In this document: piece after piece, positions 79-35,800 of the stretch | How the letters are laid out: each line of letters begins with the position of its first letter | How positions within the stretch are numbered: position 1 is the stretch's first letter | From: an uncultured archaeon | GTDB taxonomy: Archaea > Asgardarchaeota > Heimdallarchaeia > Heimdallarchaeales > Heimdallarchaeaceae | Length of the DNA stretch: 47,074 bases | Direction of reading: 5' to 3' | Assembly (NCBI GenBank): GCA_964534625.1 | Contig: CAZHRF010000021.1 | Location: 1-47,074 of the forward strand | Translations under genes and position numbers: made by a program | Notes under the pieces: model-generated | Told to the model about the DNA's origin: nothing | The model's database searches: none | What the model saw: the letters and a program-made list of their open reading frames with translations, nothing else

Positions 79-756
79 TTAAGCTAGATGATAATGTAAA
101 TCAACGGTAAGTCCCAGTCGATTTGCTTCCCAATCGTGATCATATCCTGTTTTGCACTCACCAGTATAATAAAAATGAAGATAATCATTTTCGTAAGAGG
201 CTCCTAGTCCTACATCTATCCATATCCACTCTTCTTCGTAGTCAGAGTAATACCAATATGCATGTGCCCGAACTTCATAGAAAGTTTGGTCTGTGTAATC
301 TCCGCCTTTTATCTCTAGTTGTCCTTCATATAGTAAATCATCCTCTGATGAATCTTCATCCCATACTTGTATGGTTATTATTGTATCAATGTAAACATCA
401 TAAAAATAAACCATGAAATAGTCAGTAGGATTGCCTCCTCGATTCCACCCATCATATTCTAAGTTTACCCAGTTATCTTCTGGACCTAAAAGATTCTCTG
501 CAGTCACACTACAGGTGGAATCGCCAATTGGGGGAGAGCCATATTCTACAAGGAACCAGATATCTGCATTATCAAAAGTATCTGTATCATATTCTAACCA
601 TATCTCTTTAAGTGTAATAGTTACATCCGCTACATAAACATCTAGACCTGGATGAAGACTATTTGCCTTTGTGCTAAATTGGTTCTTTGAAAATGCTGAC
701 AATAATAGAACCAATGCTATTAATGAAATTTTCTTTGTGATTTTAATATTTATCAC
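79..756 (-). CDS. Secreted acidic protein with a C2-like Ca2+-binding motif
   Basis: Signal-peptide-like KITKKISLIALVLLLSAFS; very D/E/Y/W-rich; ITIQVWDEDSSEDDLL resembles the C2 VWDxD..DD loop. The ORF-track start (807) reads through an (AT)10 tract, so I moved the start to GTG 756 (uncertain). Confidence 0.55.
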   Translation of the reverse strand: MINIKITKKISLIALVLLLSAFSKNQFSTKANSLHPGLDVYVADVTITLKEIWLEYDTDTFDNADIWFLVEYGSPPIGDSTCSVTAENLLGPEDNWVNLEYDGWNRGGNPTDYFMVYFYDVYIDTIITIQVWDEDSSEDDLLYEGQLEIKGGDYTDQTFYEVRAHAYWYYSDYEEEWIWIDVGLGASYENDYLHFYYTGECKTGYDHDWEANRLGLTVDLHYHLA

Positions 757-770
757 CAATAATAACTTAA

Positions 771-790
771 ATATATATATATATATATAT
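771..790. repeat. (AT)10 dinucleotide microsatellite in a divergent promoter region
   Basis: atatatatatatatatatat read directly, between divergent genes. Confidence 0.9.
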
Positions 791-32649: not shown

Positions 32650-32675
32650 GTTTTATTTGTTTATTTATTTTTTAT

Positions 32676-32720
32676 GTGAACGTCTTCTTGAAACCCCCTC
32701 CTTTAGGGTGGGGTAGTTCA
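32676..32720 (+). mobile_element. Isolated IS200/IS605-family end hairpin (miniature, REP-like remnant)
   Basis: gaaaccccctcc-ttta-gggtggggtagttca matches, from memory, the hairpin-plus-GTTCA terminus of tnpB-type elements; no transposase nearby. Confidence 0.65.
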
Positions 32721-32961
32721 TGTGTATCTAAAAATCTCCTAACAAGAGTGCAATTAAAATAGAACTATTTTTGATATCAATAATTGATTTGTCCACAACT
32801 TTAATATTTCATAAAAAATATTTTGTGATTATATCTTTAAAGTGCATTTCAAGAATTACGTACAAGCAAAAGTATTAAAAACAATAAAAATAATGGATAT
32901 AGGAGTACTAATAATATATTCAAACATTATTAACAACGGTTAGGATAAGGAAGGAAATAGA

Positions 32962-33972
32962 ATGTCATTCTTTGAATTTAGAAAAAAAATATTGGAAGAA
33001 AAAAAACGAAGGCAACGTACTCACACTACTACAGCAAGAGTAACGCCAAAAGAAGATACTGATGCTGTAAGAAAAAGCAAATATAATGTTGCACTATTAG
33101 GTTTAGAGAGAGCGGGTAAAACTTCTCTTGTAAAAAAACTCTTAAAACAAGATGACATTGTAACTAGGCCAACTTATGGAGTAAATATAGAAAATTACAA
33201 ATACAGGGATTTAAGCTTTAGTTGTTTTGATTTGGGTGGTCATAAACCTTTCAGAATGAGTCTATGGAAAAAGTTTATTGAACGATCTGACGCTATTATG
33301 TTTTTAGTAGATTCAGCTGATACTGCACGTTTTGAAGAATCCAAACAGACTTTTTGGCACTATTCAGATTATGTAAGGGATGAAGGCCCCGTGTTATTTT
33401 TAGCTAATAAATCTGATTTACGTACTTCAAAAGATCTAAATACAATTCATGAGTTCTTTGAATTAGATAAATTTTTACGAAATCTTCGACCATTTCATGT
33501 CGCTAGAATATCTGCCAAAACAGGTCAAGGAGTTTATGAGGCTTGGGATTGGTTGGTTGATGTGTTGGCGGGTGATAAAAAATGGAAAGTAAGAATATCT
33601 GGAACTGTTTTAGCTAATACAGATGGTAAAGTTGTCTCTGAAGTACTTTTTGGACGTCCAGATGAACAAGCCAAAAATGTTACAGATTTTCGAAAATTAA
33701 AGGAACAAATCAAACTTTTTGCCATTGAATCTAGGGAGAGTATTCAGTCAGTTAAATTAGAGAGTTTGTACAAGAAACATGCCAGTCATGTAAAAAGAGG
33801 GGGATATTGTTTATCTGTGATGATTGATCCAATAGATCCTGTTACAAGAGCTCAACAAATTCAACTGCGTATTCTTGAACATTTCAGTAGAAACACAAAT
33901 ATAACTGATAGAACTCTTGAAGAAGTATTACTATCAAAGTTTCCATTAGAAGTTAAAGGAGAGATACATTAA
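32962..33972 (+). CDS. Arf/Sar-like small GTPase fused to a C-terminal longin/roadblock-like domain
   Basis: G1 GLERAGKT, G2 PTYG, G3 DLGGH, G4 NKSD, G5 SAK; ~130 aa C-terminal alpha/beta domain. Confidence 0.88.
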   Translation: MSFFEFRKKILEEKKRRQRTHTTTARVTPKEDTDAVRKSKYNVALLGLERAGKTSLVKKLLKQDDIVTRPTYGVNIENYKYRDLSFSCFDLGGHKPFRMSLWKKFIERSDAIMFLVDSADTARFEESKQTFWHYSDYVRDEGPVLFLANKSDLRTSKDLNTIHEFFELDKFLRNLRPFHVARISAKTGQGVYEAWDWLVDVLAGDKKWKVRISGTVLANTDGKVVSEVLFGRPDEQAKNVTDFRKLKEQIKLFAIESRESIQSVKLESLYKKHASHVKRGGYCLSVMIDPIDPVTRAQQIQLRILEHFSRNTNITDRTLEEVLLSKFPLEVKGEIH

Positions 33973-34961
33973 TGAGTCATTATCTTTCCTTTTTAAGAGA
34001 TAGGTTGATAAGTACAAAAGAGGAAAAAATACCCAAATTGCTTATTCTTGGCTTAAGCAATTCAGGTAAATCATCTGTAGTTAACAGACTACTCTTTGGA
34101 ACTGTTTCCGAAGTTTATCCTGCTCAAAGCACCTGCTTTATGAATATCGCGTATGGTAAATCAGTTGTTAGTATATTGGAAGTTGATGAAGAAACATCAA
34201 GAGAGAGTCCATATTTTCAAGATATCTTGGTTAAAATAGATGGTATAATTTTTGTTTTAGATACGACAACAGAAAGACATGTTGAACCGTCTTTCGAGTA
34301 TCTTTATGGGCTATTAGATAAAATACCCCAAGAAACGCCTATTCTTCTTTTAGCTAACAAGATGGATGTTGAAGGACACGTGGAATTAGTTGATATCTTG
34401 CAAGATCCTGCATTTTCAGTCATAACTGATGATATTAATAGGTCTATATATATACAGGATGTAAGTATTAAAACGGGAGAAAATTTCTATTTGGCATTTG
34501 ATTGGATAATATCGCGAACAACGGGAAGAACACCATTACACGAAGAAGTTAATATAATGAGAATAATTATTTTAGAAGAGGGTGGCGTTCCCGCATTTGA
34601 TTATGCTTTTGATGACACGCTAGAAGAAACCGACAATACTTTATTGGGTGGGCTAATTCATGCCTTAAATATTATGGCTTCAACTATTTTTAATAGTGAA
34701 TCTGTCATGGATGTTATAAAATTAGGCGAAGTAAAGCTCGTTAATAGAAAAATGGCTGGATGGAGCATTATACTATTCATTGATCGTGAGGATAGTGAAT
34801 CAAAAGCTCAAGTTCTAGCAGAAGAAATATTAAATGCTTTTATTGAAGAAAAAGAACGTGATCCAACCAAAGAGCTACCTAAAGAGGCAAAATTTGAAAT
34901 ATTAAATAAAATACCAGAGATAGCTATGTTACTGGGACAAGAATTTAAGAGTGAAATGTGA
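33972..34961 (+). CDS. Degenerate Arf-like GTPase fused to a longin-like domain
   Basis: G1 GLSNSGKS, G4 NKMD, G5 SIK, with G2/G3 eroded; C-terminal IIILEEGGVP.F..F..D..LLGGLIHAL longin pattern; TAATG overlap with the upstream gene. Confidence 0.82.
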   Translation: MSHYLSFLRDRLISTKEEKIPKLLILGLSNSGKSSVVNRLLFGTVSEVYPAQSTCFMNIAYGKSVVSILEVDEETSRESPYFQDILVKIDGIIFVLDTTTERHVEPSFEYLYGLLDKIPQETPILLLANKMDVEGHVELVDILQDPAFSVITDDINRSIYIQDVSIKTGENFYLAFDWIISRTTGRTPLHEEVNIMRIIILEEGGVPAFDYAFDDTLEETDNTLLGGLIHALNIMASTIFNSESVMDVIKLGEVKLVNRKMAGWSIILFIDREDSESKAQVLAEEILNAFIEEKERDPTKELPKEAKFEILNKIPEIAMLLGQEFKSEM

Positions 34962-34971
34962 GGAGAAAAAA

Positions 34972-35742
34972 ATGTTTGTAAGTAATAAAAGAGAACCTAA
35001 ACTTGTTTTTAGTATATTCAAAGATTATGGCCCTGAAATAATATTCAACAATTCATCATTAGATGACGAAAACATTGCATTAACGTTGGTTATGTCAGGG
35101 ATGACCTTAGTAGAAATGAACCGTTCGTCTGTTGGACGCGTTGATGGTACAAAAACACCTCAAATGCTAGGACCAATTCCAGTCCCAGAAAATGAAACAC
35201 TTAAATCCATTGCTATTCCTTTTGAAACTGCGGTCGGAGAAACAACAGATGATAGAATTGCTGCTGCGGGATACCGATTGTGTGTTGCTTATTTTATTTT
35301 CGAAGGATCTAATGTGCGAGAAGTACTTGATAGTTATGGATTGATAGAACCTTATTTCTCTATGATAGCAAGACCTTTGGCTGAAGAAAACAATATAAAT
35401 GAGGGAAATATAAAATTAGTATATCAACGTATGATTGATATGTTCTCTGGGAAGATCCCACGAATATTTGGAATAGATGGGAAAGGTAAAGTGAAAGAAT
35501 TAATAGGAAAAAGATTAGAATACAGAAGCACTTATCTTGTTTGTGATTTACATAAAAAACAAATGCATGTGTTACTGTATAATCCAAATATGGATGTTTG
35601 GGAAAGAAGAGACATACAAAAAAGAGCTTCAGAGATTAATTCTAACATGTTTAAAAGTGCTCTGAGAATAAATATTGTAACAGATGTAAATGAAATAGCA
35701 CGTATCCTAGATTATCTAAACATAGAAATTGCACCTGTATAA
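34972..35742 (+). CDS. Longin/uDENN-like domain fused to a gelsolin-like domain
   Basis: N-terminal VFSIFKDYGP..LGPIPVP..DDR..CVAYFIF; C-terminal PRIFGI..LEYRSTYLVCD..MHV..VWERR..RASEI..INIV; GAGGAG RBS before ATG 34972. Confidence 0.6.
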   Translation: MFVSNKREPKLVFSIFKDYGPEIIFNNSSLDDENIALTLVMSGMTLVEMNRSSVGRVDGTKTPQMLGPIPVPENETLKSIAIPFETAVGETTDDRIAAAGYRLCVAYFIFEGSNVREVLDSYGLIEPYFSMIARPLAEENNINEGNIKLVYQRMIDMFSGKIPRIFGIDGKGKVKELIGKRLEYRSTYLVCDLHKKQMHVLLYNPNMDVWERRDIQKRASEINSNMFKSALRINIVTDVNEIARILDYLNIEIAPV

Positions 35743-35766: not shown

Positions 35767-35800
35767 ATACACCTTCTCCCCCCAATTTGGGGTGTGTATG
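35767..35800. terminator. GC-rich hairpin between convergent genes
   Basis: ccccaa-t-ttgggg core flanked by atacac / gtgtat. Confidence 0.3.

Follow-up and report, generated by a model that had tools for sequence, protein, structure and literature searches.

A conserved three-gene operon of Heimdallarchaeia encoding an Arf-family GTPase, a degenerate paralogue and a longin–gelsolin-like protein

Proteins in which a small GTPase (G) domain is fused to a longin or a roadblock domain have been described in Asgard archaea (Tran et al. 2024, PMC10933270). Prometheoarchaeum MK-D1 possesses an operonic pair of Rag-like GTPases that is predicted to form a Gtr1/Gtr2-like dimer, and the GTPase genes of this organism are generally not found in operons with longin genes (PMC10933270). 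The stretch of DNA analyzed here, called the window, comprises 47,074 nucleotides from an uncultured archaeon of the Heimdallarchaeaceae (contig CAZHRF010000021.1, assembly GCA_964534625.1). It contains an operon of three genes (positions 32962–35742), which encode an Arf-family GTPase, a degenerate paralogue of this GTPase and a protein composed of a longin and a gelsolin-like domain. On the basis of sequence, structural models and analogy, the three products are suggested, with confidence that stands at about the midpoint, to be a Rag-like GTPase/pseudo-GTPase pair and its cognate longin regulator, most likely a GTPase-activating protein (GAP).

According to PMC12290439, a GP motif occurs in the longin domains of FLCN, NPRL2, SMCR8 and C9orf72 and in a subset of the longins of Heimdallarchaeia, whereas longins without GAP function do not have it; the paper leaves the client GTPases of the Heimdallarchaeial proteins open. 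A preprint describes NPRL2-like longins of Asgard archaea that carry many domain fusions (bioRxiv 10.1101/2020.10.19.343400). In the Sar1 system, the gelsolin-like domain of Sec23 supplies a catalytic residue for Sar1 (summarised in PMC11914678); the same paper states that no regulators of the Arf GTPases of Asgard archaea have been identified and reports that the gelsolin domain is missing from Asgard Sec23-like proteins. The operon and a Rag-linked counterpart of it provide a pairing of GTPases with longins that addresses both gaps, that of the client GTPases (PMC12290439) and that of the Arf regulators (PMC11914678). The trio, which is conserved in more than one family, is a concrete and testable candidate for a small GTPase with a dedicated regulator in the archaea most closely related to eukaryotes, and its three small soluble products lend themselves to expression and assay.

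Organization of the operon and structure of its products

Gene 1 (P0001, 336 residues, positions 32962–33972), gene 2 (P0002, 329 residues, 33972–34961) and gene 3 (P0003, 256 residues, 34972–35742) all lie on the forward strand, to which the feature coordinates below also refer unless noted. The TAA stop codon of gene 1 and the ATG of gene 2 overlap by one base (TAATG). The TGA of gene 2 is followed by a spacer of 10 nt (34962–34971, GGAGAAAAAA) and then by the ATG of gene 3, with a ribosome-binding-like GAGGAG placed across the gene 2 stop. The start of gene 3 is assigned to the ATG at 34972 and not to the upstream GTG at 34951, because 23 of 23 aligned homologues begin at the ATG position. 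The coordinates, the TAATG overlap and the 10-nt gap with its GAGGAG confirm the three tightly coupled genes that a first-pass annotation, made from the sequence alone, had described here.

Gene 1 encodes an intact Arf-family GTPase, which scores 123.7 bits (E 7e-36, cut-off 22.3) against the Pfam Arf family PF00025. An N-terminal helix (residues 3–20) and a variable basic linker precede the G domain (residues 38–204), which is followed by a C-terminal domain (residues 212–326). All G motifs are present (GLERAGKT, T71, DLGGH, NKSD and SAK) and are invariant in 19 orthologues. The switch-II motif D90-L-G-G-H94 (33229–33243), also invariant in these orthologues, contains a histidine at the catalytic position where Arf has a glutamine, as in Sar1. 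The solved chains nearest to gene 1 are those of the Asgard ArfR (PDB codes 8oun, 8oum and 8oul; E 2.8e-27 to 2e-24), and in a fold search the model of the G domain matches Arf1 (Z 23.2), HodArfR1 (Z 20.8) and Sar1 (Z 19.4).

The AlphaFold2 model of gene 1 has a mean pLDDT (predicted local distance difference test) of 75.5. The C-terminal domain (33595–33939) is modelled at pLDDT 85–95 with the elements b-b-a-b-b-b-a-a, which is the order of a longin and not of a roadblock domain (a-b-b-a-b-b-b-a). The match lists of the gene 1 fold searches, in the PDB and in a protein atlas, are filled by the G domain, and the longin assignment rests on this modelled element order. The nearest atlas cluster with coverage of two domains is an archaeal Arf/Gtr1_RagA cluster (TM, template modelling score, 0.49/0.54). 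The predicted N-terminal helix has conserved aromatic residues and an unremarkable hydrophobic moment of 0.41, which ranks 103 among 325 sequence windows. A membrane anchor formed by an N-terminal amphipathic helix was considered for genes 1 and 2 and dropped, the hydrophobic moment being unexceptional.

Gene 2 is paralogous to gene 1, with a degenerate G domain (Pfam Arf, E 3.5e-18) and a homologous C-terminal domain (residues 188–329). The alignment of the two proteins is colinear across both domains, with 24% identity over 269 residues (E 5e-16). G1 (GLSNSGKS) and G4 (NKMD) are kept in gene 2. The G2 threonine is lost, A51 being aligned with the switch-I T71 of gene 1, and the degenerate G3, E70-V-D-E-E74 (34179–34193), is aligned with D-L-G-G-H of gene 1. 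Among the orthologues, G3 reads E-A-D-E-E in the other members of the window's own family (f1) and D-L-G-Q or D-I-G-N in a second Heimdallarchaeia family (f7), which is also without the DxxG glycine. The loss of G2 and G3 in both families indicates that the degeneracy is old and has been maintained, which fits a pseudo-GTPase. To judge from its motifs, gene 2 is probably a pseudo-GTPase that is still able to bind nucleotide.

By sequence, genes 1 and 2 are not members of the Rag family, since they score 15.2 and 17.1 bits against Gtr1_RagA (PF04670), below the cut-off of 22, and score much more strongly against Arf. Profiles of their C-terminal domains returned nothing meaningful from the PDB sequences and only sub-threshold noise from Pfam, and hhalign detected no similarity between these domains and the longin of gene 3. 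In a feature search of the protein atlas the nearest named clusters were archaeal ones labelled Fuz_longin_1 or roadblock (0.78–0.85), which are to be read as leads only. The Pfam matches, the motifs, the alignment and the model of gene 1 bear out the first-pass description of two paralogous Arf-type G domains with longin-type C-terminal domains, one of the two being degenerate.

Gene 3 encodes a protein that a structural model (pLDDT 71) divides into two domains. It has no Pfam family, as no family was matched by gene 3 and 25 relatives (26 members). The family is small: an exhaustive search of 1.84 billion representatives with its profile yielded 61 proteins only. The N-terminal domain (residues 4–161, 34981–35454) has the longin element order b-b-a-b-b-b-a-a, and in a fold search of the model its best match is a Lokiarchaeal longin (8yqg_B, Z 10.7; 137 residues aligned, root-mean-square deviation, rmsd, 3.2; VIA-align). 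Other matches are Lst4 (4zy8_C, Z 10.0), the folliculin complex (6nzd_H, Z 9.0; 6ulg_N, Z 8.7), C9orf72–SMCR8 (7o2w_A, Z 8.8; 6lt0_B, Z 6.7) and GATOR1 (Z 7.4), as well as longins of the guanine nucleotide exchange factor (GEF) type from TRAPP (Z 7.1–7.2) and Mon1–Ccz1 (Z 6.5–6.8), and DENND1A (Z 6.0). The operon contains no second stand-alone longin gene; its other longin-type domains are the C-terminal ones of genes 1 and 2.

The conserved residues of the longin domain, derived from 60 family representatives, are D18, G20-P21, N26, G67-P68-x-P70, D93, R95 and G100, which are invariant or, at some positions, nearly so, and R102 (51/59). The GP motif G20-P21 (35029–35034; 57/57 and 56/57 representatives) is placed at the end of a loop ahead of strand 2 (residues 23–26, DSSP of the model). 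The D93-x-R95 motif (35248–35256) is located between strands 4 and 5, with the aspartate present in 59 of 59 and the arginine in 58 of 59 representatives. R95 is an obvious candidate for a catalytic arginine finger.

The C-terminal domain of gene 3 (residues 162–256, 35455–35739) is gelsolin-like, with the elements b-b-b-b-a-b-a. Its best fold match is the Thorarchaeal ProGel (7c2f_D, Z 10.2; 86 of 88 residues, rmsd 2.7), followed by adseverin (Z 9.2), over 15 domains from gelsolins, villins or fragmins (Z 7.5–9.2) and the gelsolin-like domain of Sec23a (Z 7.6). The gene 3 family profile matches the sequence of ProGel across the whole domain (E 6.7e-4), which is the only significant sequence-profile match of this domain. 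Foldseek with the gene 3 model gave the same domain picture with weaker statistics. The Pfam Gelsolin model does not match gene 3, yet it picks up an ordinary gelsolin in the window's own genome, a canonical two-domain protein with two Pfam Gelsolin matches in one frame of 231 residues (genome G000, contig C28, positions 265–780, reverse strand). The fold search and the ProGel profile match agree with the earlier assignment of a GP-motif longin joined to a gelsolin-like domain in the third protein.

Conservation of the operon and Rag-linked relatives

Close relatives of gene 3 are present in 30 of 30 other genomes of the window's own family and in 12 of 12 genomes of family f7, while more remote members extend to other families and to only a small number of genomes outside the class. 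The gene 1 C-terminal domain is confined to the own family (29/30) and f7 (12/12), where it is always found beside the rest of the trio. In 28 other genomes of the own family, in the own genome and in 10 genomes of f7 it shares contig and strand with gene 3 and is encoded 1.0–1.3 kb ahead of it. This gap corresponds to the length of gene 2, and the exceptions coincide with contig ends. Inspection of open reading frames (ORFs) at 16 loci upheld the 1–2–3 order of the genes. The complete genome of Ca. Heimdallarchaeum endolithica (CP084167; trio at locus L001, 3964–6768) has other flanking genes than the window, which indicates that the trio itself is the conserved unit. The first-pass annotation had named unlinked genes in other genomes as a finding that would count against its proposal; the trio was instead found to be syntenic in the own family (29/30) and in f7 (10–12/12).

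The neighborhoods of the trio contain additional genes. In Ca. Heimdallarchaeum endolithica (locus L001, 2075–3567, reverse strand) a weakly Arf/Ras-like protein of 255 residues and a 235-residue protein of unknown function are encoded divergently upstream of the trio, an arrangement that the window does not share. In f7 the gene for a plain small GTPase of 173–175 residues comes after gene 3 on the same strand (L015, 5906–6433; L017, 5934–6455).

Relatives of gene 3 are also encoded beside true Gtr1/RagA genes. Eight loci from eight genomes of another Heimdallarchaeia family, f5, share the order Rag-like, degenerate Rag-like, P3-like (a longin plus a gelsolin-like domain, as in gene 3) and Rag-like, as determined from ORFs and Pfam Gtr1_RagA (L028, 2943–6729; also L031, L033–L036, L041 and L046). 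The degenerate Rag copy has the P-loop GLSHSGKD and is without DxxG and NKxD. The order is Rag, Rag, P3-like in genome G079 (L048, 2625–5502) and P3-like, Rag in genome G397, which is from outside the class (L030, 4983–7009). The intact Rag copies of f5, G079 and G397 match Pfam Gtr1_RagA with E values of 1e-32 to 1e-36. The linkage of the longin–gelsolin family to paired two-domain GTPases is thus recurrent. GTPase linkage is observed in at least three distinct gene 3 lineages and with two GTPase families, closely related genomes not being independent of each other. At locus L030 a Ras-family GTPase and a 327-residue protein of unknown function are encoded divergently upstream.

In a quick maximum-likelihood tree of the gene 3 (P3) family, the ARF-linked and the RAG-linked clades are separate, each with a value of 99 in the Shimodaira–Hasegawa-like approximate likelihood-ratio test (SH-aLRT), and the gelsolin-like domain is present in both alike. 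The remaining subfamilies have no GTPase neighbor, have a Fuz_longin-like neighbor, or possess a TPR-like tail that replaces the gelsolin-like domain. In a third family, a gene for a protein of 197–200 residues comes next after the P3-like gene (L019, 5051–5644; L020, 3245–3847); this protein scores 22.7 bits against Fuz_longin_1, below the cut-off, and is weakly similar to the C-terminal domain of gene 2. Loci L037–L040 and L045 (e.g. L038, 4986–6011) encode paralogues of 340–372 residues with a longin and a TPR-like C-terminal region and have no GTPase neighbor.

The longin class of gene 3 is expanded in the window's own genome and, to judge from profile matches, fused to other domains. About nine further matches to the family profile, mostly to its longin part, are found in open frames of 175–864 residues (C26, 5419–5826; C28, 3218–3649; also on contigs C95, C18, C43, C19, C22 and C34), and one of them (C34, 14377–14631) covers profile positions 145–231, the gelsolin-like region. 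The same genome has at least 25 further small-GTPase-like matches. A search of the genome for Sec23_trunk gave no match, but the control search matched nowhere either, so this result is uninformative. The window itself encodes, at a distance of 13 kb on the upstream side of the operon, a stand-alone GP-motif longin of ~162–165 residues without a gelsolin-like domain, P0252 (21653–22150). P0252 belongs to the longin family of gene 3, matches the P3N profile (E 3e-17) and carries the motifs LGP, YGPLPVP and T-D-L-R; it could be a second longin subunit.

The genes that flank the trio in the window are unrelated to it: a BacA/UppP gene is located upstream and a convergent GNAT gene downstream. The intergenic region 5′ of gene 1 (32650–32961) is an AT-rich segment of 312 bp, presumed to contain the promoter, with a purine-rich AAGGAAGG ~8 nt ahead of the ATG. 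C-run/G-run hairpins at 32694–32713 (CCCCCTCC-TTTA-GGGTGGGG) and at 35776–35792 (CCCCCC-AATTT-GGGG) lie directly 3′ of the upstream gene and of gene 3, respectively, and may be terminators; a strict hairpin pattern has one site in the whole window against 0.27 expected. The GC content of the window is low (~31%). Its DNA was found in four microbial-mat metagenome runs, which may be its source, and no RNA run containing it was listed.

Proposed mechanism and alternative explanations

In the proposed mechanism gene 1 would be the working switch, an Arf-family (ArfR/Sar1-like) GTPase with a C-terminal longin-fold domain. Gene 2 would be its permanently ‘parked’ partner, which can probably hold nucleotide but is without the switch-I threonine and the DxxG that sense the γ-phosphate. 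The C-terminal longin-type domains of the two would mediate the pairing, much as C-terminal roadblock domains do for RagA/B with RagC/D or for Gtr1 with Gtr2. Gene 3 would be the GAP for gene 1, with R95 supplied in trans. A GAP is the most likely function of gene 3 because the protein belongs to the class of GP-motif longins (folliculin, NPRL2, SMCR8) and has the invariant arginine of D-x-R, and gene 1 would benefit from an arginine in trans because its catalytic position holds a histidine. The gelsolin-like domain may provide a second contact with the G domain, in the manner of Sec23 and Sar1, or may couple the complex to actin, and the complex might also be connected to membranes. Complex prediction with the three full-length chains gave, for gene 3 as a partner, values of 0.07 and 0.04 for the interface score ipSAE against a mark of 0.32, which speaks neither for nor against binding.

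Several results weigh against this proposal. The PDB titles of solved Rag-like GTPases from Asgard archaea describe them as monomeric (9m28) or homotetrameric (8yl2), so heterodimerization cannot be assumed. In hhalign, the C-terminal domain profiles of genes 1 and 2 match each other modestly (66%, E 5e-5). None of the Pfam longin, folliculin and NPR2 models matches gene 3. Comparison of the gene 3 family with an NPRL2 profile, which is shallow and made from vertebrates only, was not significant (hhalign probability 0.09%, E 0.59) and aligned the 25-column GP stretch alone. The fold scores for GAP-type longins (Z 6.7–10.0) are only modestly above those for the GEF-type longins of TRAPP and Mon1–Ccz1. 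A gene 3 paralogue in f7 and several other gene 3 subfamilies have no GTPase neighbor.

The longin fold is also compatible with a role of gene 3 as an exchange factor or a scaffold, similar to Mon1–Ccz1, TRAPP, DENN or Ragulator, in which the GP and D-x-R residues would be structural or would serve in binding. Most of the characterized longin platforms are GEFs or scaffolds (PMC12290439), the longins of TRAPP, Mon1–Ccz1, CPLANE and DENND1A also match the gene 3 model (Z 6.0–7.4), and gene 3 has no significant sequence link to NPRL2. However, longins other than those of GAPs lack the GP motif according to PMC12290439, yet it is invariant in the gene 3 family together with a nearly invariant arginine, and among eukaryotic proteins the highest fold scores go to components of GAP complexes (Lst4, the FLCN complex and C9orf72–SMCR8); such a role is considered rather unlikely. 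A function as an effector or adaptor, recruited by the GTP-bound pair through longin–longin or G–longin contacts, is given a similarly low probability. The ProGel-like domain would then sequester, cap or sever archaeal actin, and the operon would encode a GTPase-controlled actin switch. The best match of the domain is the actin-binding single-domain gelsolin ProGel, both by fold and by profile, Asgard gelsolins are reported to regulate actin in vitro (PMC7444086), and the domain is kept in the ARF-linked and RAG-linked clades. This explanation leaves the invariant GP/D-x-R signature of the longin unaccounted for, and gene 3 escapes the Pfam Gelsolin model, whereas the canonical two-domain gelsolin of the genome matches it. 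Action as an effector and action as a GAP can coexist.

It is very unlikely that the three genes are merely co-expressed, with genes 1 and 2 acting as monomers or homo-oligomers and gene 3 serving other GTPases. The monomeric and homotetrameric titles of the solved Lokiarchaeal Rag-like structures (9m28 and 8yl2) would fit such an arrangement, as would the many further small-GTPase-like and GP-longin matches of the genome. It is at odds with the strict synteny of the trio at translational-coupling distances in two families, with the restriction of the gene 1 C-terminal domain to places where the ARF-linked gene 3 clade occurs, and with the same type of linkage having arisen independently with Rag pairs.

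If gene 3 is a GAP for gene 1, as favored here, longin-based inactivation of Arf- and Rag-type switches would be older than eukaryotes. Actin binding by gene 3, should it occur, would provide a direct link from a GTPase to the cytoskeleton in the archaeal lineage closest to eukaryotes. A bolder hypothesis, which is speculative and judged improbable as a whole, is that the longin GAPs of eukaryotes have their archaeal forerunner, or a sister group that survived, in the longin–gelsolin family. This family would consist of single-gene GAPs dedicated to dimeric two-domain GTPases, already split within Heimdallarchaeia into lineages that serve Arf- and Rag-type GTPases and foreshadow the division between the C9orf72–SMCR8–WDR41 complex (CSW) and folliculin/GATOR1. 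Its gelsolin-like domain, a module of the type reported to be missing from Asgard Sec23-like proteins, would contact the Sar1-like (DLGGH) GTPase, so that forerunners of the Rag–GAP and of the Sar1–Sec23 logic would be united in a single operon, possibly wired to actin.

Comparison with known systems

The Rag/Gtr GTPases and their longin GAPs (FLCN–FNIP or Lst7–Lst4, and the NPRL2–NPRL3 part of GATOR1) resemble the operon in several ways. Paralogous two-domain GTPases are encoded together, the regulator is a longin with a GP motif ahead of strand 2 and a conserved arginine, and gene 3 matches the folds of Lst4 (Z 10.0), the FLCN complex (Z 9.0/8.7) and GATOR1 (Z 7.4). Relatives of gene 3 are moreover encoded beside true Gtr1/RagA. 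Unlike in the Rag system, the G domains of the operon are of the Arf family, the C-terminal domains have the longin element order and one partner is a pseudo-GTPase. Gene 3 is a single gene with a gelsolin-like domain, in place of a DENN/NPRL C-terminal domain and a two-subunit longin pair; the operon has no Ragulator or TOR context, and at the sequence level gene 3 shows no significant similarity to NPRL2. The Rag-like arrangement with longin or roadblock domains envisaged in the first-pass annotation holds in part: the linkage of gene 3 relatives to Gtr1/RagA fits it, while genes 1 and 2 fall outside the Rag family and their C-terminal domains show the element order of a longin instead of a roadblock domain.

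In CSW a GP-motif longin acts on Arf-family GTPases, and gene 3 matches its structures (7o2w_A, Z 8.8; 6lt0_B, Z 6.7). Gene 3 differs in having neither a DENN region nor a WD40 subunit, and its putative client is a two-domain GTPase pair. The similarity to Sar1–Sec23 of coat protein complex II (COPII) lies in the Sar1-type DLGGH of gene 1 and in the match of the gene 3 C-terminal domain to the gelsolin-like domain of Sec23a (Z 7.6). Gene 3 does not have the trunk, zinc-finger, beta-barrel and helical domains of Sec23, no equivalent arginine was identified, and its C-terminal domain matches actin-binding gelsolins better than Sec23a.

The Heimdallarchaeial FLCN/SMCR8-type and the Asgard NPRL2-like longins share the class of GP and arginine motifs and the lineage with gene 3. 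No mention of a gelsolin fusion or of linkage to an ArfR or Rag pair was found in the accessible parts of PMC12290439 and of bioRxiv 10.1101/2020.10.19.343400, nor was a published description of the operon or of a longin–gelsolin fusion found in the full-text literature searched, the coverage of which was limited. The first-pass annotation did not recognize the combination, which was fair, as the components have been published separately and the operon and the gelsolin fusion were not met in that literature.

The Rag-like pair of MK-D1 and other Asgard two-domain GTPases (PMC10933270; PDB codes 9m28 and 8yl2) are similar to genes 1 and 2 in the fusion of a G domain to a C-terminal longin- or roadblock-type domain and in the presence of a paralogous pair in one operon. 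Unlike in that pair, a longin regulator gene is always attached in the trio and one of the GTPases is degenerate. The Thorarchaeota ProGel (7c2f) is the best structural match of the gene 3 C-terminal domain. ProGel is a stand-alone actin-binding protein, while the corresponding domain of gene 3 is part of a longin-containing protein whose gene is linked to those of GTPases.

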